A stretch of DNA of 41,580 bases from a virus. Its lineage: Duplodnaviria; Heunggongvirae; Uroviricota; Caudoviricetes. Below the pieces are notes generated by a model. It ran no database searches. It saw only the letters and a list, made by a program, of their open reading frames with translations, and was not told the DNA's origin. A program made the translations under genes and the position numbers. Shown piece after piece: positions 3,191 through 35,570 of this stretch. Within the stretch, counting starts at the first letter, position 1. Every line of letters begins with the position of its first letter. The stretch is from the IMG/VR virus record IMGVR_UViG_2565956608_000009; one strand, given 5' to 3'.

Positions 3191-3205
3191 TTACCCTATA
3201 GGTGA
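3191..3205. promoter_or_regulatory. Operator-like palindrome TTACC-ctata-GGTGA upstream of the acetyltransferase gene
   Basis: One mismatch to TTACC-N5-GGTAA; 37 nt upstream of ATG 3242 in the divergent holin/acetyltransferase intergenic region. Confidence 0.4.
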
Positions 3206-7444: not shown

Positions 7445-7548
7445 GTTAAATCTCCAGATAGTCGCAGCACCCGTTGCGCCGCATATCTGGTTATTCTATT
7501 ACCTGAAAAACCATATATGGATGGAAAGAGTGTTAATGTGAGCAGATA

Positions 7549-7563
7549 TTACCTTTCAGGTGA
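7549..7563. promoter_or_regulatory. Operator-like palindrome TTACC-tttca-GGTGA
   Basis: One mismatch to the recurring TTACC-N5-GGTAA motif; intergenic between tailspike start and the 7640 gene. Confidence 0.4.
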
Positions 7564-7600: not shown

Positions 7601-7620
7601 TACTGTATAAACATACAGTT
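7601..7620. promoter_or_regulatory. LexA (SOS) box
   Basis: TACTGTATAAACATACAGTT: CTGT-N8-ACAG with the flanking TA of the consensus TACTGT(AT)4ACAGTA; 20 nt upstream of ATG 7640. Confidence 0.65.
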
Positions 7621-7639: not shown

Positions 7640-7897
7640 ATGCAGCAGTATCACTATCCACTGGAAGAGGGATTTACCGAAAGGATTCACACGCCGGGAG
7701 GCGTCAGGTCACTGGTGGAAGGATCGCACTTGATGAAATTACTCCGGGATCTCGATAAGGATGGATTTAATGTCGATGGCCCACTTGCCGAACTGACTGC
7801 ACTGATTAACTACGTCACCAGCTCACAGATGTCTATGCAGGATCTGCAAACACATCTCGACTATTGTGCCGAACAACTACGAAAACAAACCACATAA
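7640..7897 (+). CDS. Small antirepressor-like protein (standalone homologue of the C-terminal domain of the Bro-N antirepressor at 9045-9755)
   Basis: 85 aa from ATG 7640 (SD GGAGAAG at 7628-7634); ORF track start 7517 would span the LexA box; clear similarity to the C-terminus of the 9045 protein (LMKLLRDLDKDGFNVDGPLAELT / LMNLLNQLQDDGHDVSGAAAELT; DLQTHLDY / DIQTHAEY). Confidence 0.55.
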   Translation: MQQYHYPLEEGFTERIHTPGGVRSLVEGSHLMKLLRDLDKDGFNVDGPLAELTALINYVTSSQMSMQDLQTHLDYCAEQLRKQTT

Positions 7898-7903
7898 AGA
7901 AAA

Positions 7904-7919
7904 GGCCGCAAGAGCGGCC
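7904..7919. terminator. Bidirectional terminator hairpin between convergent genes
   Basis: GGCCGC-aaga-GCGGCC; T-rich on the minus side, moderately T-rich on the plus side. Confidence 0.55.
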
Positions 7920-8647
7920 TATCGTTTCGCTTTGTGCTCGTCCCAGCACGTTTTGCACCATGCCATTAAGCCATCCGCATTTTGATTATTAGGGTAAAAG
8001 CTGGTTCGTTTTCTGCGGACATTACAAATTGGGCACCACTTCATATGACGTGTATTCTTTGGGCCATCTAGACACCTTGCACACCACTTAGTCAATCCAT
8101 CTGGATTTTTTGACGATTTCCTGAATTTTTCATATGGAAGGTTTATTCTGCATCGCAAACACTGCTTGCGGGCACTTGAAACTTCGTTAGCTGATTCTTC
8201 TTTTGACGGCGATACAGAAGGTATTCTTGCTGGCTCTGATACTGCCTGAGGTGCTTTTTTAGGTGACTGAGACGATACGTCATCACCAGGGAATCTTCCA
8301 TGATATGCCGGACACGTTGACACTCCAGGTGGAAGCTCTGCTGTAAATGGCTTTGGCTGAATCAGTTGCCTCTCTTTTGCTAACTCCTGCTGTTTATAAT
8401 ATGTCTGGATTACCGCGCTATCATAAGCAGGAGGTACGGAAATATTAGGCGCATTATCTCCCGTTTTTTGAAACTGAGTGGAGGTGTGTTCTATCACCTG
8501 TGTACGATTAATCGTTATCTCCCCATCTTCAGTCTTTATCGTTTTGTTACGATTAACGACCGTACGATCAGAGATCTTAGTCTTGTTCTGGTGAAGGACA
8601 TAAATAATCACCGCAACCACACCAACAACTATCCAGAAAACTTCCAT
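7919..8647 (-). CDS. Membrane-anchored protein with C-terminal double zinc-ribbon (four CxxC pairs), function unknown
   Basis: 242 aa; one N-terminal TM helix (FWIVVGVVAVIIYVL) followed by basic residues; C-terminus CLRC...CARC...CPIC...CKTC; SD GAGGAA before ATG 8645-8647. Confidence 0.6.
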   Translation of the reverse strand: MEVFWIVVGVVAVIIYVLHQNKTKISDRTVVNRNKTIKTEDGEITINRTQVIEHTSTQFQKTGDNAPNISVPPAYDSAVIQTYYKQQELAKERQLIQPKPFTAELPPGVSTCPAYHGRFPGDDVSSQSPKKAPQAVSEPARIPSVSPSKEESANEVSSARKQCLRCRINLPYEKFRKSSKNPDGLTKWCARCLDGPKNTRHMKWCPICNVRRKRTSFYPNNQNADGLMAWCKTCWDEHKAKR

Positions 8648-8667: not shown

Positions 8668-8682
8668 TTACCTTAAAGGTAA
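8668..8682. promoter_or_regulatory. Operator palindrome TTACC-ttaaa-GGTAA
   Basis: Perfect copy; 21 nt upstream of the start codon of the minus-strand gene 7919-8647. Confidence 0.55.
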
Positions 8683-8760: not shown

Positions 8761-8775
8761 TTACCTTTGCGGTAA
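8761..8775. promoter_or_regulatory. Operator palindrome TTACC-tttgc-GGTAA
   Basis: Perfect copy at the head of the long leader upstream of the Bro-N antirepressor gene. Confidence 0.55.
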
Positions 8776-8810: not shown

Positions 8811-8888
8811 GGCACTGGCAAAATCCAGTGCCGGGATTGGCGTCCCGGGTTACTAAGTGGCGCATACCACGCCAGACGTGGTTTTTTT
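8811..8888 (+). ncRNA. Structured leader / candidate small RNA or attenuator ending in an intrinsic terminator
   Basis: Three consecutive hairpins (GCACTGG/CCAGTGC 8812-8831; CCGGGA/TCCCGG 8831-8848; CCACG/CGTGG 8867-8881) followed by T7 run 8882-8888; located between operator 8761-8775 and the antirepressor SD at 9032. Confidence 0.35.
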
Positions 8889-9044
8889 ATGCGTTAAGCA
8901 CAGCTATATCCGAATTATGGTGGGCTGGGCAGGGGTCCGAAAGGACGCCGGTACCACTTAGGCCGGTACGCCAACCTTGTCCAGTTCACCACCAGTAATT
9001 GGCGTTGCGGTGGTGATTAAAATCACTAAGTGGAGATAACCACC

Positions 9045-9755
9045 ATGGCTAATGCTCAAACTTCCATCTTCAAATTTGAATCTGTTAACCCTATCCGTTC
9101 CATCATTATCGATGGCCAACCATGGTTTGTAGCCCAAGACGTTTGTAGTGCGCTGCGTATCCAAAACGTCACCCAAGCACTTGAAAAACTGGATGATGAT
9201 GAAAGGTCTATGTTCAACATAGGGCATGAACATCGTGCAATTTTTGACAGCCGAGTAAAAGAGATCAACATCATCTCCGAGTCAGGCCTCTACACACTGA
9301 TCCTCAGATGCCGCGACGCAGTGACACCAGGCACTATCCCCTACCGCTTTCGTAAATGGGTTACAGGTGAGGTTCTTCCTCAGATCCGCCGCACCGGAAG
9401 TTACATTAAAAACTCGCTCCCGCAGGAAGAACGCATAAAGATGGTTGCCGACCAGGTAGCCAACGCCACGGCGTCAGCAGTAATGCAGGCGATGAAGATA
9501 GAGAACAAAACCTACAGTGCCCCACTGAAGCCCGGCTACCGCAGTCTGATTCACTCGCCGTCTGGTGTTCTCGGCCTGACGGAGAACTCACTGCTGATGA
9601 ATCTGCTGAACCAGTTGCAGGACGACGGGCATGATGTATCGGGCGCGGCAGCGGAGCTGACCACCATGTTCTGCTACATCGTCGGTGTGAGCAAGTGCCT
9701 GCGTGATATCCAGACCCACGCGGAGTATATCAACGACAAAGCAGGGTTCTTCTGA
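9045..9755 (+). CDS. Antirepressor, Bro-N (KilA-N-type) N-terminal domain with Ant-type C-terminal domain
   Basis: Start ATG 9045 with SD GGAGA (track start is GTG 9030); N-terminal motif FVAQDVCSALRIQNVTQALEKLDDDE...YTLILR and VLPQIRRTGSY typical of Bro-N antirepressors. Confidence 0.8.
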   Translation: MANAQTSIFKFESVNPIRSIIIDGQPWFVAQDVCSALRIQNVTQALEKLDDDERSMFNIGHEHRAIFDSRVKEINIISESGLYTLILRCRDAVTPGTIPYRFRKWVTGEVLPQIRRTGSYIKNSLPQEERIKMVADQVANATASAVMQAMKIENKTYSAPLKPGYRSLIHSPSGVLGLTENSLLMNLLNQLQDDGHDVSGAAAELTTMFCYIVGVSKCLRDIQTHAEYINDKAGFF

Positions 9756-9827: not shown

Positions 9828-9842
9828 TTACCTCAAGGGTAA
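9828..9842. promoter_or_regulatory. Operator palindrome TTACC-tcaag-GGTAA overlapping a candidate promoter
   Basis: Perfect copy; preceded by -35-like TTGCAG (9800-9805) and -10-like TACTAT (9823-9828). Confidence 0.55.
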
Positions 9843-18324: not shown

Positions 18325-18788
18325 TATTTTCTCTCCATGTGAAATCTGTGGAAATTAAGACCAAGAGCACCATAAGGCGCGGCTTCTTCAAGCCTGAATC
18401 CAAGCCAGTGGAGCCATGCTTTGGCAACATGGTTTCGCTCGTCGACGTAGTTTTCCAGGCGCGGATAAACTGCCAGCATCTGCCGCAATACAGGGTGGCA
18501 GTGGCGAAGAAATGTCTTCTGATATTTTTCAATACGGCTGGTCCCGACCAGCCAGGGCGTACCATTGCCACCGATCATTGACGCCGGAGATACACCAAAC
18601 ATGGTTACCAGTTCTCCGTTCGCGAACCCTGACCAGGCCATAGTCGCAGTGCGCAGACCAACACGCAGCGCATCTTCGGTAGTCATCAGCGATACCGCAT
18701 ACAGTTCGTCAATATCAGCCTGACGAACATCCGGCAAAATCATCTGAAGATGCTCTTCGGTTGCGGGAATAATTTGAACACCAATCAT
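18324..18788 (-). CDS. Hypothetical late protein
   Basis: 154 aa; start overlaps the stop of the upstream gene (ATGA). Confidence 0.5.
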   Translation of the reverse strand: MIGVQIIPATEEHLQMILPDVRQADIDELYAVSLMTTEDALRVGLRTATMAWSGFANGELVTMFGVSPASMIGGNGTPWLVGTSRIEKYQKTFLRHCHPVLRQMLAVYPRLENYVDERNHVAKAWLHWLGFRLEEAAPYGALGLNFHRFHMERK

Positions 18789-21259
18789 CAGAATCCCCCA
18801 ACAGTAAGGCGAGGAATAACGGCAAGAACAGACAGCGGCAACGGATCAAGCTGACGGATTTTTACACGTCCGTTTTTGCCCCAGTTACTGTCCAGTTTCA
18901 CTTCTACTTTTCCGGTAGCATCATCAACAGGATCATCGTAGAACTCGAATTCACGCTGTGGATATTCGTACCATTTACCGCCGGGCGTAGTCGCCCAGAT
19001 GCCGCGGCTGGCATTCACAACCAGAGTAACGGATGGGATCACCTGTTTTTTGTCCAGCAGCGTTTCCTGTCCGTTAATGTTGATATCCAGTGTTTCGAAT
19101 TCAGCAGTTATTGGCAGGCCGATGTGCACTACAGCCCCCGGAGATTCCAGCGTGACGGCACCTCCGGAAACCACTTTCTGTGGTTCCACGTTCGCATCAG
19201 AGAGAATGTTTACGGTCTGGCCTTCAAGATGAGACAGGCCTCCAAATGTCCGGCGCGCCATCTGCCAGTTCGTGGTGGCCACATTCCTGAGGGATGGCGG
19301 GACGTTCCTGTTAGCACGAACCACTACAGCGGTATTGCTGGTTACAGAAATAATGTCGCAACGTAATTCTTTTGACACTTCATCGCCAGTATCAGGATCA
19401 GTTCCGGTATAAGGGAATTGTAGTTGCGCACCGACATCACTACTGGTGAAGTACGCACCACCAGAAATACTGATTGTATATTCCACGCGGTAATCCCATT
19501 CACCAGAACCACCAGTGATGGTCATCGTTCTGTCAGACGTATTTCTTCCATCATAGCTAAGGCCAGAATCAACAAAGAAAGCATCTTCATCGCTGGTAAA
19601 TAAACGGCTGGACAGCCGCTCGATGTATCTCACTGTTTGCCCGTTAACGGTTCGGTTAACGACGAAATACACCGCATCTTCATTTCCTTCGCTGATACTG
19701 CATGTGCTTTCATATTTTCCGGTACTGGACTGTGGTGCCCATGCAAAAACCTGTTGATCACGCAAATAGGTCATCACCAGTAATTTACCGTCATCACGAA
19801 TGCAGAAGGCGCTGGAGTAAGGGACAATAGAGAAGCACCAGTCAACAATGCTGTGCTTCTGAAAAAGATGATTGGCAAGGATGGTCAGGTCGTTCCCCTG
19901 ATAGCCGTCAACATCGAATGAGTAGGCCAGATCACGGACAACACTGCCTTTCTCCTGGACGAACAGAGCAATATTCGCCACGGCAATTGGTGGGACATTG
20001 CTCGAGCCATTTGATCCCTGAGAGCTGAATGCAAATGATGATGGGGTTAACACTTTGTTCTGGTCGCCGGTGATGACGTACTCACCTCCGGAAGTCAGCG
20101 CCACCAGCGAACCAACATCAATCAGGTGACGGATCTCATTAACCTGACGCCCGGCATAGGTGTAGATAATTCTGTCGTCATCCTGCGTAGGATTGCTTTT
20201 GCCAAAATCCTTATAATCCCCAGTACGGCTGGCTCAGATAGTCTGAGGGAACGCAGTCGATGCGGCGAAGTAAAGACGTTGTTGATAATAAACAACAGTG
20301 CCAGGATAACCATTAACACTGTTCCAGGCATATTTAGCCCATTTATAGCTGGCATTATCCTCGCCAACTACCTGCGAAGGGATATAGGAAATCACCTCGG
20401 CAGTTGCAGTAGTTCCATTTGCAGCAGTGATACGGGCAATGCCAAAACCACTGTGCAGATACTCCCACTCAATGCCAGTATCATCATCACCGGAGCCGCC
20501 CCAGCCATCCCATGATGTGCCTTCTGTATGCGAAGGGCGCAAAGTGCCTGTTTTGCCTGCTGTAACGGCGCGATAGTAGTTACTGTCTGCACGGCGAATA
20601 TCGCTAATCGACGTACTCTTACTGGTTTCCCATACCGGCACTGAATCCACTGCAGGCTGTTCCAGATAGAACAATTTGCCTACCTGCTCCGCGCCAAAAA
20701 TAGAGGCGCTTGCCGTTAACGTAATTGTCCCAGTGCTGGCGCTGGCATAAACCGTCACTGACTCGTCGATATTGATATCTTCAAATGGTCCGTTCTTCGT
20801 TACCACATCAACCAGTTGCCAGTTGTCATGCGCATAGCGACGCAACTCTTTCGGCGGGTATGCCGGATGAACAAGCGTAAGCACGTCGGCGCTTTGCGTG
20901 AATTTAATTCGGAACAGATCGGCTTCAGTATATGGCGTGGCAATTTCATAAATAACATTGCTGCTGTTCAGCACCAACGCACCATCTTTGATAACGCGCA
21001 TGTACTGGTGTCCGAACTCCAGAGCGTAGGTCTGAACCGTCGAGAACTGGAACGGGATCAGGCGGCATTTCCGATTTGGGTATTTGGCGGCACCGACAAA
21101 ACGCGTACCAGGTCGATTCTCAACGCCGCCATACTGCCGCACGATAAAGTTATCGCACTTGCGCAATGCCACCTGGTACTTCGCCATGTCGATACGACCG
21201 TACAACGACGGTCCAATCTCACCACCGGCAAAGCTGGGCTGGATCCAACTGATAGCCAT
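18788..21259 (-). pseudogene. T7 gp12-like tail nozzle gene interrupted by a single in-frame TGA (20234-20236)
   Basis: ORFs 20234-21259 (341 aa) and 18788-20104 (438 aa) are in the same frame; the 43 codons between them are open and the track start at 20104 is a GTG inside continuous coding; combined about 822 codons, the size expected for a nozzle protein. Confidence 0.6.
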
Positions 21260-27033: not shown

Positions 27034-27070
27034 TTGACATTTAACGCACGAATTATTACCTTTCAGGTAA
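27034..27070 (+). promoter_or_regulatory. Candidate promoter (-35 TTGACA) with operator palindrome TTACC-tttca-GGTAA (27056-27070)
   Basis: Perfect -35 hexamer 27034-27039; perfect operator copy overlapping the expected -10/+1 region; directed toward the tRNA. Confidence 0.5.
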
Positions 27071-27469: not shown

Positions 27470-27672
27470 GAATCACGCCTAAGGACCGTGATGCCAGAAG
27501 TTCCAGGGGCTTGGCGGTGATGGTTTCCCTTGAAGGACTATCACCGCCCTTTTTACAGCAGGACGCCATTGCGATGGCTTCATGCTGTAAACCAGTACAG
27601 CCACGGAAGGCATAACTCATTGCTTCCAGTTCGCCCGGTTCGCAGGGCATTTTTTTAAGGTGAGATTAGACT

Positions 27673-28044
27673 ATGAGTGACAAAGACATTGAATCTGAAA
27701 TTCAGGCTAAAGGTTTAGCCGCGCCGCGCGTTACGCCAGACCATATCGAGAGTATTATTGCTCAGGAGGCATATTTCACAGCAGAAGATGGTGTCTTTGG
27801 CGTAGCCATAAAAGCGAAACATACTGGCGGAGAGGTAAACTACCAGCCGCACGAATCACTTTCTCTGCTGACGTTCTGCGTTCTGGTGCTGCGCAATGGC
27901 TTCACCGTCACCGGAGAGAGCGCCTGTGCAAGCCCGGAAAACTTTGATGCGGAAATTGGTCGGAAGATTGCCCGGCAGAATGCTGTAAACAAAATCTGGA
28001 TGCTTGAAGGTTACTTGCTGAAGCAGAAGTTAAGCGAGCAATAA
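27673..28044 (+). CDS. Gp49-like phage protein of unknown function
   Basis: 123 aa; SD AAGGTGAG; pattern TFCVLVLRNGFTVTGESACASPENFD recalls the N4 gp49 / Sf6 gp66 family; oriented opposite to the flanking late genes. Confidence 0.5.
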   Translation: MSDKDIESEIQAKGLAAPRVTPDHIESIIAQEAYFTAEDGVFGVAIKAKHTGGEVNYQPHESLSLLTFCVLVLRNGFTVTGESACASPENFDAEIGRKIARQNAVNKIWMLEGYLLKQKLSEQ

Positions 28045-29610: not shown

Positions 29611-30203
29611 TGATTACCATCCTGACGTTCTTTGAGTCGCTTCCTGGCTGCTGCTATGCGATCAGCAATTGTCACATTCACATTAACATCCAGACGTTCT
29701 TTGAACGCGTTGACATCAACATGCTTACCAATCAGCTCAAGGTTCTTCACCTTGTCAGGCCATTTAATTTTTTTGAGGATTGTCTCTATCGAATCCTCGT
29801 TCATGTTCATGATGGTCGACGACAGATCAAAGCCACTAAGCGTAGTGCGCCAGATTTTCGGCCACTCACGGATTGGTTTAAGGCTCCCATCGTCGTTGAG
29901 GATGTCGATCACGTCCATCTGGTCGATCTCCACCAGGCGCATGAGAACGTAATCAGCACTGACGCGCATTCGTTTGTTGCGCTCCTCCATCAACTCGGCA
30001 ATCCGTTTCTGAATGCGTTCATCGCGCATCATGACACTGGCTTTAACTGCCGCTGTGTTTGGGGAGAATCCTGCGTTAATCGCTGCCTGAGTCTGGTTTT
30101 CAGGCGTTTTGATGTATGACTGGCAATAAGCCTCCTGCATTGCTGTGAGCGGCTTAAATTGCGTTGATTTGCGTTTATAGGTTTTAGGTTCAGCAGGCAT
30201 CAT
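29607..30203 (-). CDS. Terminase small subunit
   Basis: Likely start at tandem ATG 30198-30203 with SD GGTGG (track starts at TTG 30281, which would span a terminator hairpin); HTH-like LTAMQEAYCQSYIKTPENQTQAAINAGFS. Confidence 0.7.
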   Translation of the reverse strand: MMPAEPKTYKRKSTQFKPLTAMQEAYCQSYIKTPENQTQAAINAGFSPNTAAVKASVMMRDERIQKRIAELMEERNKRMRVSADYVLMRLVEIDQMDVIDILNDDGSLKPIREWPKIWRTTLSGFDLSSTIMNMNEDSIETILKKIKWPDKVKNLELIGKHVDVNAFKERLDVNVNVTIADRIAAARKRLKERQDGNQ

Positions 30204-30220
30204 AACCACCGTGGTAATAG

Positions 30221-30235
30221 TTACCGTTGTGGTAA
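30221..30235. promoter_or_regulatory. Operator-like palindrome TTACC-gttgt-GGTAA just upstream of the terminase small-subunit start
   Basis: Perfect TTACC-N5-GGTAA; only copy adjacent to the late operon; within the track's N-terminal extension of the 29607 ORF. Confidence 0.45.
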
Positions 30236-30246
30236 TAATACCATGC

Positions 30247-30272
30247 AAAATAAAGCCGCCATAGTTGGCGGC
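30247..30272 (-). terminator. Intrinsic terminator-like hairpin upstream of the terminase genes
   Basis: Minus-strand GCCGCCA-acta-TGGCGGC followed by TTTATTTT. Confidence 0.45.
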
Positions 30273-30313
30273 AGTATTCAAAATCCATCAAATTCATCAT
30301 GCATAATCTACTC

Positions 30314-30325
30314 GTGACATGTCAC
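30314..30325. repeat. 12-bp perfect palindrome GTGACATGTCAC, copy 3 of 3
   Basis: Overlaps the stop codon of gene 30322-30669; about 45 nt upstream (in transcript direction) of hairpin 30247-30272. Confidence 0.6.
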
Positions 30326-30669
30326 ACTATTAATTTCGTTTCATGCCAGCCTTTAGTCACCCAGCATTGCGAGTCACCATTACACGGGCATGAATTAACT
30401 GGAACTCTCTCGCCGCACTTACCGCAACGTTTTCTGCTGATCGATTTTATACGCCCGCGCACGCGTGCATCATCCTGGCGGATCAGTAACGCGATGTATT
30501 CGCTCATTTCATACGGCGCACGACCAGGGCGACGGGCGGCACAGTTACGCTCCAGCATTTCCTGCTCCTGCTTATCCAGCACCAGTTCAATTTTGCGCTC
30601 ACCGGCGGCGGACTGCCGAGCGCGCTGCGCGGCTTTGCGTTCTGCGGGGGATTTAGCCACGAATCGCAC
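30322..30669 (-). CDS. Hypothetical protein with C-terminal Cys cluster (candidate late-gene regulator)
   Basis: About 112-115 aa; C-terminus RCGKCGERVPVNSCPCNGDSQC; start ambiguous between GTG 30669 and GTG 30660 (SD GGAG 9 nt upstream of the latter); last gene before the terminase operon. Confidence 0.45.
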   Translation of the reverse strand: MRFVAKSPAERKAAQRARQSAAGERKIELVLDKQEQEMLERNCAARRPGRAPYEMSEYIALLIRQDDARVRGRIKSISRKRCGKCGERVPVNSCPCNGDSQCWVTKGWHETKLIV

Positions 30670-32412: not shown

Positions 32413-32489
32413 TTACCTCTGAGGTAATTAAAAACCACATAAGACACTAAATTAATAGAGTTTAGAATATTTTGTTACCTGATAGGTAA
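32413..32489. promoter_or_regulatory. Two operator palindromes (32413-32427 TTACC-tctga-GGTAA; 32475-32489 TTACC-tgata-GGTAA)
   Basis: Both perfect; between the P-like gene stop and the DUF1064-like gene start; the proximal copy overlaps the SD. Confidence 0.55.
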
Positions 32490-34115: not shown

Positions 34116-34316
34116 TCAGCTTGAATGTTGTGGGGAGGAATTAATCATGATCTGCTTAATCTCTGCCCTAATGCGACGGTTTGATTCCATGGTGCACTCA
34201 ACACAGTGTCCGTTGTAAACCCAGCGTTCACTGTCATGTCCGTGCTTACATGGTTTTCCGGTGTAGTAGCGTTTAAGTCCGCGCTTTGCGGCATCAATAC
34301 GTGTAATGATTTCCAT
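34116..34316 (-). CDS. Small putative zinc-binding protein
   Basis: 66 aa from ATG 34314-34316 (track starts at TTG 34379); Cys/His cluster PCKHGH...HCVEC; weak SD. Confidence 0.4.
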   Translation of the reverse strand: MEIITRIDAAKRGLKRYYTGKPCKHGHDSERWVYNGHCVECTMESNRRIRAEIKQIMINSSPQHSS

Positions 34317-34396: not shown

Positions 34397-34411
34397 TTAC
34401 CTTTAAGGTAC
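34397..34411. promoter_or_regulatory. Operator-like palindrome TTACC-tttaa-GGTAC
   Basis: One mismatch; between the Cro-like gene terminator and the next early gene. Confidence 0.4.
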
Positions 34412-34421
34412 GAATAGATAT

Positions 34422-34444
34422 GAAAAGACCGCCGGATGGCGGTC
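34422..34444 (-). terminator. Terminator hairpin after the Cro-like gene (tR1-like position)
   Basis: Minus-strand GACCGCC-atcc-GGCGGTC followed by TTTTCA. Confidence 0.5.
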
Positions 34445-34466
34445 TACAGAGGGTTGTAGCTGGATA

Positions 34467-34697: not shown

Positions 34698-34764
34698 AGC
34701 TATTGCCTGATATTTATTTCAGATAATAAATATTCACCCATAAGGTAACAAAAATCAAGGATAG

Positions 34765-34796
34765 TTACCTATGAGGTGCATTTACCTGTTGGGTAA
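34765..34796. promoter_or_regulatory. Tandem operators in the divergent switch region (34765-34779 TTACC-tatga-GGTGC; 34782-34796 TTACC-tgttg-GGTAA)
   Basis: Two adjacent copies separated by 2 bp between the Cro-like and repressor genes; an AT-rich inverted repeat ATATTTATT/AATAAATAT lies at 34710-34733. Confidence 0.55.
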
Positions 34797-34851
34797 TATT
34801 GCTTTAAATTGAATCATCTACTGATTCATATATGAGGCGATTTTCCAGAAA

Positions 34852-35436
34852 ATGAAAAGTATCCAGGACGTCCGCAGGCAAAATCTCAACGACTTGATCG
34901 ACCGTGAATTCAATGGTGTTCAGACGCGGATGGCAGAAAAACTTGGAACTCAGGCAAATCTGGTAAACCGCTGGGCTCTTGGCAAGAAGGTTATCGGCGA
35001 CCAGGTTGCGCGAAAAATTGAAGCTGCCGCCAATAAACCCCGTAACTGGCTTGATATCGATCGCTCGCTTTCTCAGGAAGGTTTTCAGCCTGTCGGCCCA
35101 AGCGACATTGGTCAGCTGGCGGCTCACAACCTGGAACGCTGGATGAGCGAAAGCCGCGACCTTTCAACACAGGGAAAACTTCACCGCGCATCCGGCGTCG
35201 CCCAGGTGACAATCAGCCGCCTGTTAAACAATGAGGTCAGCGTTTCCATTTCCACCCTGGAGAATGTTGCATCTGCATTCGGGCGTCACGGATATGAACT
35301 ACTGATTCATCCGCATGACCCTGCAACTATCAACTATGACCGCTCGCGCTACGCATTGTTACCTGAAACAGAGAAGGCAAAGATCGAAAGTTACATTGAA
35401 TTTGTCATCAACCAGAACGAAAAAAACAAACAATAA
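34852..35436 (+). CDS. Prophage repressor candidate: tandem helix-turn-helix protein without a peptidase domain
   Basis: 194 aa; two XRE-like HTH segments (QTRMAEKLGTQANLVNRWALGKK and LHRASGVAQVTISRLLNNEVSVSISTLENVASAFG); no S24 Ala-Gly/Ser-Lys motif; followed by a strong terminator. Confidence 0.6.
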   Translation: MKSIQDVRRQNLNDLIDREFNGVQTRMAEKLGTQANLVNRWALGKKVIGDQVARKIEAAANKPRNWLDIDRSLSQEGFQPVGPSDIGQLAAHNLERWMSESRDLSTQGKLHRASGVAQVTISRLLNNEVSVSISTLENVASAFGRHGYELLIHPHDPATINYDRSRYALLPETEKAKIESYIEFVINQNEKNKQ

Positions 35437-35457
35437 AATCATATTTTTCAGTAAGTA

Positions 35458-35480
35458 AGCCGCCTTATGGCGGCTTTTTT
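35458..35480 (+). terminator. Rho-independent terminator
   Basis: AGCCGCC-ttat-GGCGGCT followed by TTTTTT. Confidence 0.65.
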
Positions 35481-35493
35481 ATTGCCTATTCGA

Positions 35494-35570
35494 TTACCTA
35501 ACGGGTAATTTTTTTAACTCATATCTATTGACATCAAACCAGATACGCATAATTATTACCTCAACGGTAA
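35494..35570 (+). promoter_or_regulatory. Promoter region of the plus-strand early operon: operators 35494-35508 and 35556-35570 flanking -35 TTGACA (35527-35532)
   Basis: Both copies perfect (TTACC-taacg-GGTAA, TTACC-tcaac-GGTAA); the second overlaps the expected -10/+1 region. Confidence 0.55.

Follow-up and report, generated by a model that had tools for sequence, protein, structure and literature searches.

The stretch of DNA considered here, referred to as the window (41,580 nucleotides; IMG/VR virus record IMGVR_UViG_2565956608_000009), is an integrated phiV10/epsilon15-type podovirus prophage of E. coli and falls within the genus Uetakevirus. Host genes yfgH and yfgI are present at its left end and a tyrosine integrase is encoded at its right end. 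The current analysis is concerned with its immunity region, in and around positions 34698-35436, where the gene of a 76-residue Cro-like protein and the gene of a 194-residue lysogeny repressor, Rep, are transcribed divergently. The two open reading frames (ORFs) and the 154 bp between them (34698-34851) are placed as a preliminary description, made from the sequence alone, had placed them. Over the 1.5 kb around the immunity region the identity to phiV10, phiv142-3, ZX5 and further E. coli phages is 97-99%, and the region has been found in 562 of 5426 complete genomes of E. coli, or about 1 in 10. The genome of E. coli SCU-116 matches the window except for one 24-bp indel. Rep itself is 100% identical to p40 of phiV10 and to ORF21 of ZX5. 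The Cro-like protein matches phrog_35, annotated as 'transcriptional repressor' (E 5.6e-13), and shares 76% identity with SPC32H_042 of the Salmonella phage SPC32H. It has no Pfam match and a sequence search of the PDB was empty at E values up to 10; its role as Cro is inferred from position only.

Rep shares 42% identity over its full length with the Rep protein of SPC32H (BLASTP, E 2e-53), a phage whose record names both rep and ant. A profile of 27 homologues searched against the PDB with hmmsearch has matched 5D50_A (E 7.7e-65, positions 1-192 of 195) and 5D4Z (E 1.2e-32). These entries are SPC32H Rep in complex with its antirepressor (5D50) and alone (5D4Z), the latter comprising the C-terminal 107 residues. 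The same entries are the top matches in a Foldseek search with an AlphaFold2 (AF2) model of Rep, in which the C-terminal two-thirds aligns to 5D4Z with a target TM-score of up to 0.78. The model (predicted local distance difference test score, pLDDT, of 78) comprises helical bundles at 4-59 and 85-151 and a C-terminal helix at 172-193, and the linker residues 74-83 are disordered, with pLDDT below 50. Judged by homology, Rep would be made up of an N-terminal helix-turn-helix (HTH) DNA-binding domain (approximately 1-72), a linker (73-84), a middle dimerisation domain of HTH fold (85-155) and a C-terminal domain for tetramerisation and Ant binding (156-194). In the alignment Y181 and F184 occupy the places of F187 and F190 of SPC32H Rep; among the 27 homologues F184 is invariant and position 181 is either Y or F. 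By eye, the middle domain looks less well conserved with SPC32H Rep than the parts on its N- and C-terminal sides.

The preliminary description had read two HTH domains in one chain without an S24 autocleavage domain, and both parts of this reading are borne out. Only the second HTH scores above the Pfam cutoff (HTH_3, residues 106-147, E 1.2e-9), with the N-terminal match to YdaS remaining sub-threshold. The N-terminal HTH-fold domain is recognised through PHROG repressor families, which span both halves of Rep, through the AF2 model and through homology to 5D50. This architecture is not new; it is already in the annotation of phiV10, where the GenBank note on p40 reads 'putative transcriptional repressor; two helix-turn-helix motifs'. 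An origin of the two domains by internal duplication was also considered and has been rejected, the two having no detectable similarity (E 0.88). As for autocleavage, Pfam gives no match in Rep to S24, the C-terminal peptidase domain that in lambda CI and LexA has a Ser/Lys dyad and an Ala-Gly cleavage site; the C-terminal part of Rep is homologous to 5D4Z instead, and Rep does not belong to the CI/LexA family. A second CI-like repressor has not been found in the window either by tblastn or in the Prokaryotic Genome Annotation Pipeline (PGAP) annotation of the near-matching SCU-116 genome; lambda CI and LexA queries gave no tblastn match better than E 0.35 over the whole window.

The intergenic region contains palindromes of the form TTACC-N5-GGTAA. 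This is the operator motif used throughout, mismatches are counted against it, and all operators described here are predicted sites (Table 1). The two adjacent operators described earlier within 34765-34796 are present as O2 and O1. The operator half-site GGTAAC described at 34744-34749 is also present, but belongs, as the right half, to a complete third operator, O3. O3 aligns with a comparably imperfect operator in SPC32H, epsilon15, Klebsiella phage BUCT711 and Enterobacter phage Tyrion. At the place of O2 and O1 three of these four relatives (SPC32H, epsilon15 and BUCT711) have a pair of exact sites 17 bp apart, the pair of the window being formed by O1 and the imperfect O2. The AT-rich inverted repeat noted earlier is likewise found, with 9-nt arms that are 100% complementary and separated by 6 nt. 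Within it lies the -10 hexamer of the PR-like promoter that matches best, and the repeat is read as promoter sequence and not as a separate element. A role of the repeat as an RNA or regulatory hairpin has been discarded on the grounds that its fold is no better than that of shuffled sequences (z = -0.65) and that its sequence is not kept by three of the four relatives aligned (SPC32H, epsilon15 and BUCT711).

The PR-like and PL-like promoters are matches from a consensus scan and not mapped promoters. The latter is the PL equivalent of the recombination operon, as assigned from the homologue or from geometry. Genes 3' of it, which constitute the leftward early/recombination operon, encode a protein of 53 residues, a coiled-coil protein, a nuclease of the PD-(D/E)XK type and RecT.

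Table 1. Features of the immunity region and related elements in the window. Operators, promoters and RNAs are predicted; an empty strand cell denotes a feature listed without strand.
Feature	Position	Strand	Remarks
Cro-like gene, 76 aa	34467-34697	-	First gene of the rightward early (replication) operon
rep, 194-aa lysogeny repressor	34852-35436	+	Homology, profile and structure matches
O1	34782-34796		TTACCTGTTGGGTAA; exact palindrome; kept in 5 phages
O2	34765-34779		TTACCTATGAGGTGC; 2 mismatches; starts 17 bp before the start of O1
O3	34734-34748		TCACCCATAAGGTAA; 1 mismatch; overlaps spacer and -35 of the PR-like promoter
AT-rich inverted repeat	34710-34733		Arms 34710-34718 and 34725-34733
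PR-like promoter	34723-34751	-	TTGTTA-17-TATTAT; 9/12 consensus matches; reads into the Cro-like gene
PL-like promoter	35528-35556	+	TTGACA-17-AATTAT; 10/12 consensus matches; best promoter match in the region
OL distal operator	35494-35508		TTACCTAACGGGTAA; ends 20 bp upstream of PL -35
OL proximal operator	35556-35570		TTACCTCAACGGTAA; first base is last base of PL -10; starts 62 bp after the distal site
ant, 85-aa small antirepressor	7640-7897	+	Divergent from the tailspike gene, as ant/tsp in SPC32H
LexA box	7603-7618		CTGTATAAACATACAG; CTGT-N8-ACAG; 21 nt upstream of the ant start codon
Operator upstream of ant promoter	7549-7563		TTACCTTTCAGGTGA; 1 mismatch; about 40 bp upstream of the LexA box
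Rep operator	32413-32427		Exact; 3 nt upstream of the DUF1064 gene start
Rep operator	32475-32489		Exact; starts 62 bp after the 32413 site; downstream of replication gene P
Two operators before the small terminase gene	30203-30235		30221 exact; 30203 with 1 mismatch
Rep operator	27056-27070		Exact; between portal-side gene and tRNA-Arg; syntenic with epsilon15 2931-2947, annotated repressor site
Rep operator	9828-9842		Exact; between BRO-N ant gene and next gene
Operator-like site	3191-3205		1 mismatch; divergent holin/O-antigen acyltransferase intergenic region
Operator-like site	34397-34411		TTACCTTTAAGGTAC; 1 mismatch; just 3' of the Cro-like gene terminator
Rep operator	8668-8682		Exact; distal site of the isrK-C4-ant operon
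Rep operator	8761-8775		Exact; abuts a promoter-like match TTGATT-18-TATCAT (by eye); geometry as at PL
isrK-family small RNA	8812-8888	+	Upstream of BRO-N ant; Rfam RF01394; 67.7 bits (gathering score 50)
C4 antisense RNA (P1/P7 immI type)	8913-8996	+	Upstream of BRO-N ant; Rfam RF01695; 66 bits (gathering score 45)
BRO-N antirepressor candidate with Ant-like C-terminal domain	9045-9755	+	phrog_130 'anti-repressor Ant'; E 3e-56
Intrinsic terminator 3' of the Cro-like gene	34426-34445	-	Scan; annotated in phiV10 too
Intrinsic terminator 3' of rep	35457-35476	+	Scan; annotated in phiV10 too

The operator motif is not restricted to the immunity region. Exact copies number 10 in the window against 0.01 expected by chance, and roughly 16 palindromes are present when imperfect ones are included. 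Among all palindromes of the type X5-N5-rc(X5) in the window TTACC is the top half-site, with 10 occurrences against 2 for the runner-up. Each of the four other Uetakeviruses considered (SPC32H, epsilon15, BUCT711 and Tyrion) has 9-11 exact copies at syntenic positions, and all five genomes have pairs of exact sites 62-63 bp apart near rep and after the replication genes. Over 38 exact sites of four genomes the operator arms are identical and the flanks are mirrored, with A at -1 in 28 and T at +1 in 23 of them. The imperfect site at 3191 has counterparts in SPC32H (24782, 1 mismatch) and epsilon15 (24704, exact), and the operators before the small terminase gene, terS, correspond to epsilon15 12-26 and 30-44, the first of which is annotated as a repressor site. 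The dispersal of operators over the genome is not new, being known from the GenBank record of epsilon15, which labels seven such sites 'protein_bind: repressor'.

The exact sites are all intergenic or at gene starts, with one apparent exception, 30221, which lies inside terS as called by PGAP. The start called by PGAP is further upstream (30257 in the PGAP-annotated record, about 30281 of the window), so that the operators fall within the annotated gene. The true start of terS is probably the downstream ATG, as in epsilon15 and SPC32H, where the sites are at 12-44 and terS starts at 47. In this region (30180-30330, minus strand) the operators are situated between an intrinsic terminator and the ATG at about 30200, with no room for a promoter; Rep might act here as a roadblock or as the anchor of a loop. 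The operators at 32413-32427 and 30203-30217 end 2-3 nt before a start codon, and their GGT/AGG arm is a Shine-Dalgarno sequence as well (TTACCTCAGAGGTAAatcATG; TTACCACGGTGGTTAtgATG).

A gene for a small antirepressor, ant, has been identified at a distance from the immunity region. The 85-residue product belongs to the family phrog_450, is 89% identical to SPC32H Ant (E 3e-58) and matches chain E of 5D50, 'Anti-repressor protein', with an E value of 5e-48. The LexA box preceding ant is conserved in SPC32H, epsilon15 and BUCT711, and so is the operator at 7549, the epsilon15 counterpart of which is annotated 'protein_bind repressor'. The pattern CTGT-N8-ACAG has 3 matches in the window against 0.54 expected. 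The earlier proposal that induction needs an antirepressor is supported by this SPC32H-like Ant gene behind a conserved LexA box. To judge from the complex in 5D50 and from secondary accounts, Ant would bind Rep and free it from DNA. Further upstream in the intergenic region between the tailspike gene and ant, a block at 7497-7520 is conserved in four phages (TTCTATTACC...AACC.TATATG); it lies upstream of the operator and holds a lone TTACC half-site. A second match resembling a LexA box (27585-27600, CTGTAAACCAGTACAG) is situated about 70 nt upstream of a gene of the Gp49 family (approximately 27673-28044), which is adjoined by a phage tRNA-Arg (27393-27466).

The Rep/Ant pair of SPC32H, a phage of the same genus, has been studied before, and its crystal structure is known (Kim & Ryu, J Virol 2013; Kim et al., PNAS 2016; PDB 5D50, 5D4Z). 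In a later account, only the N-terminal domain of SPC32H Rep is given as the DNA-binding domain, the middle HTH-fold domain (MDD) serves for dimerisation, and the p53-like C-terminal domain (CAD/TetDloop) makes tetramers and binds Ant, with F187 and F190 at the tetramer interface (PMC9986798). This and two other articles describe an exchange between dimers and tetramers, in which the tetramer binds palindromic DNA and the dimer binds it weakly, and propose that paired DNA-binding domains come from different dimers (PMC9986798, PMC9638917, PMC6868357). The window shares with SPC32H a cro-like gene divergent from rep and followed by recombination genes, an ant gene divergent from the tailspike gene with a LexA box before it, and TTACC-N5-GGTAA sites at syntenic places with spacings of 17 and 62 bp. 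It differs in having a Rep only 42% identical, imperfect O2 and O3, an isrK-C4-BRO-N::Ant module and a replication gene of the lambda-P type. SPC32H Rep reportedly stays uncleaved on SOS induction, and ant is said to be repressed by LexA in that phage.

Every sequence-level feature of the SPC32H-type Rep/Ant family that was tested for is present in the window. The preliminary idea of an immunity switch of a prophage is supported, and we consider it very probable that the switch between lysis and lysogeny of a phiV10/epsilon15-type (Uetakevirus) prophage is located here and works as an SPC32H-type Rep/Ant system. This reading is based on the homology of Rep and Ant to the crystallised pair, on the operator motif with its statistics and synteny, on the LexA box and on the absence of an S24 domain. 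In such a system Rep would bind palindromes of 15-17 bp, (A)TTACC-N5-GGTAA(T), through paired N-terminal HTH domains, as the homologue suggests. The second HTH-fold domain would dimerise Rep, and the p53-like C-terminal domain would join the dimers into a tetramer. One tetramer could then hold two palindromes, either 17 bp apart as at OR or 62 bp apart, close to six helical turns, as at OL and after the replication genes. Bound at O3, Rep would occlude the PR-like promoter, and the PL-like promoter would be blocked by Rep on the operator abutting its -10 hexamer. Rep would also sit at most other transcription-unit boundaries of the phage. Lacking an S24 domain, it would remain uncleaved. On DNA damage LexA would leave the box before ant, and the 85-residue Ant would accumulate, bind Rep and strip it from DNA. 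The oligomeric state of Rep, the identity of its DNA-contacting domain, the promoter assignments and the looping of DNA are what we infer from the homologue or from geometry.

Several points weigh against this reading. Rep is 42% identical to the crystallised protein, and its oligomeric state and contacts with Ant are therefore extrapolated. The mechanistic details of SPC32H are taken from secondary accounts. The middle domain keeps Q107, Q118 and R123, polar residues typical of an HTH, which are invariant in close homologues and not conserved in SPC32H Rep. The promoter of rep (PRM) was not located by the consensus scan; candidates seen by eye are a -10 at the invariant TAAATT (34805-34810), which overlaps O1, or a -35 at TTGAAT (34809-34814). 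The protein that binds the palindromes may be Rep, the Cro-like protein or both.

In an alternative reading, the dispersed palindromes would serve mainly a different protein of the phage, for example the Cro-like one or a late regulator, and the action of Rep would be confined to the immunity region. The operators of lambda are shared by Cro and CI. The Cro-like protein is better conserved with SPC32H (76%) than Rep is (42%), in parallel with the invariance of the motif, and some of the sites are found at gene starts with no recognisable promoter, for instance before terS behind a terminator. Against this, both Reps have kept the recognition region NLVNRW in the N-terminal domain, the dispersed sites repeat the sequence of those at OR and OL, and the annotators of epsilon15 have given these sites to the repressor. 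Overexpression of Rep in ZX5 has moreover silenced transcripts of lysis genes far from the immunity region: with ORF21 overexpressed, the transcripts of endolysin and holin fell by about 99.97-99.99% and free phage disappeared (PMC9782041). This alternative is considered unlikely, and the two assignments of the dispersed sites are in any case mutually compatible.

The preliminary description had gone on to suggest that Rep could recognise the palindrome as a monomer. In such a model a single Rep chain would act as an intramolecular pseudo-dimer, each HTH contacting one half-site, so that the monomer would be the binding unit. Rep does have two HTH-fold domains on a flexible linker, the centres of the half-sites are about 10 bp apart, and the middle domain scores both as HTH_3 and as a LacI-type HTH, with the three residues named above conserved among close homologues. 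The N-terminal and middle domains nevertheless lack detectable similarity, as mentioned, and carry net charges of +5 and -1. The half-sites of the operator are identical and symmetric out to the flanks, which fits two identical readers and not two different ones. In the SPC32H homologue the middle domain dimerises and the tetramer binds DNA through the N-terminal domains; Q107 and Q118 are not conserved there despite the same operator. The conserved pairs of operators at 17 and 62 bp suit a binder with four heads. Since the domains are dissimilar, the operator is symmetric, the corresponding domain of the homologue dimerises and the pairs are conserved, a tetramer fits better than a monomer by this indirect argument. 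The conserved interface aromatics speak against the monomer as well, and we regard it as very improbable.

That the 194-residue protein is an antitoxin-like regulator of the HigA/VapI type, with immunity located elsewhere, is hardly credible: the N-terminal part has a weak likeness to YdaS and HigA-type HTH proteins and one phage record reads 'plasmid maintenance system antidote protein VapI', but no toxin partner gene adjoins the gene, the protein is a full-length homologue of a characterised repressor crystallised with its antirepressor, the identical protein blocks the lytic cycle when overexpressed, and no other repressor candidate is seen in the window in the PGAP annotation of the near-matching genome or by tblastn.

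The SPC32H-type Rep/Ant system that we favour is already known: the mechanism has been published for SPC32H, and overexpression in ZX5 has served to test an E. coli repressor of identical sequence. The current analysis adds nothing fundamental to it; its modest leads are a second Ant paralogue, joined to a BRO-N domain, and an operator that does not vary across the genus. With the immunity region present in about a tenth of complete E. coli genomes, the induction route would be useful for prophage biology and for reporter phages of the phiV10 type.

The first of these leads is located between 8648 and 9755. The BRO-N protein matches phrog_450, the family of the small Ant, at residues 153-234, and over residues 155-232 it shares 40% identity with the small Ant (E 2e-15). 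The layout of the region fits that of an immI of the P1/N15 type, with a predicted RNA of the C4 type 5' of ant and with two exact operators of the primary repressor (8668 and 8761) on either side of a promoter-like site. The isrK-C4-BRO-N module is absent from SPC32H and epsilon15. In ZX5, overexpression of the related BRO-N protein ORF4, which has 39% identity to ORF23, the antirepressor of phiV10, promoted the lytic cycle; the article names only the BRO-N protein as antirepressor, and its text as searched contains no mention of HTH motifs, electrophoretic mobility shift assays or defined operators (PMC9782041).

We put forward, as a tentative proposal that is rather less likely than otherwise, that prophages of the phiV10 type possess two tiers of antirepression, one being the Ant controlled by LexA and the other the BRO-N Ant paralogue, which lies behind isrK and C4 and has a promoter repressed by Rep, and that cross-immunity, cross-induction and loops of 62 bp held by Rep tetramers go along with it. 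If true, such a circuit, not explicitly described so far, would provide a route to the inactivation of Rep that is SOS-independent or feed-forward. Cross-immunity and cross-induction could likewise occur among different prophages of E. coli, Salmonella, Klebsiella and Enterobacter, because one operator sequence and a nearly invariant Ant have been kept in all Uetakeviruses examined despite a Rep at 42% identity. At several promoters over the genome a single Rep tetramer would then close a loop between the two operators of a conserved 62-bp pair. The occurrence of one operator in five Uetakeviruses, with Ant at 89%, the Cro-like protein at 76% and Rep at only 42% identity to SPC32H, raises the question of what determines the specificity of immunity.

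Among other known systems, phiV10 p40 and ZX5 ORF21 have the identical repressor sequence, and the window differs from those phages in being an integrated prophage with an interrupted structural gene. Like 186, N15 and the Gifsy prophages, the window encodes a repressor without an autocleavage motif and a LexA-controlled antirepressor outside the immunity region, and induction would proceed by protein binding. The proteins of these phages are not known to be related to Rep and Ant of the window. Tum of 186, AntC of N15 and GfoA, GftA and GfhA of the Gifsy prophages are LexA-controlled antirepressors of non-cleavable repressors, and the Gifsy repressors are proteins of about 136 residues resembling the N-terminal part of CI (Lemire et al. 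2011, PMC3121763). The repressor of the window, in contrast, is predicted to have three domains and to be tetrameric, and its Ant is of a distinct family.

With the systems based on lambda CI, P22 C2 and LexA the window would have in common divergent PR and PRM promoters with three operators, a second set of operators at PL, and repression by an HTH protein that would oligomerise to bridge operators. It departs from them in the absence of an S24 peptidase, in a probable dimerisation module of HTH fold combined with a p53-like tetramerisation domain, and in the distribution of operators over the whole genome. As in immI of P1, immA of N15 and immI of P22, a C4-type RNA precedes an ant gene, here together with isrK. 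Operators of the primary repressor lie at the promoter region, similar to P1, where the immI operon is controlled by C1. The window is set apart from these three phages by the coexistence of a separate, LexA-controlled small Ant and by a BRO-N protein with an Ant-like C-terminal domain.

A large virion gene (18788-21259, minus strand), homologous to the 2.4-kb gene at the gp12 position of epsilon15, is split into two ORFs (20234-21259 and 18788-20104). In the near-identical SCU-116 prophage the same gene carries a pseudogene flag from PGAP with an internal stop, and this prophage copy may not make viable particles.

Two further proteins are encoded near the antirepression and immunity genes. 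One of 66 residues follows the Cro-like gene (34116-34316, minus strand) and has no Pfam match, as is also the case for the small early-left genes. The other, of 242 residues, is encoded at 7919-8647 (minus strand), divergently from the immI-like module. Cys/His-rich motifs are common to the 66-residue protein and the C-terminus of the 242-residue protein, and both match the same PHROG families, of the endonuclease VII/HNH-like zinc-finger type (phrog_1035).

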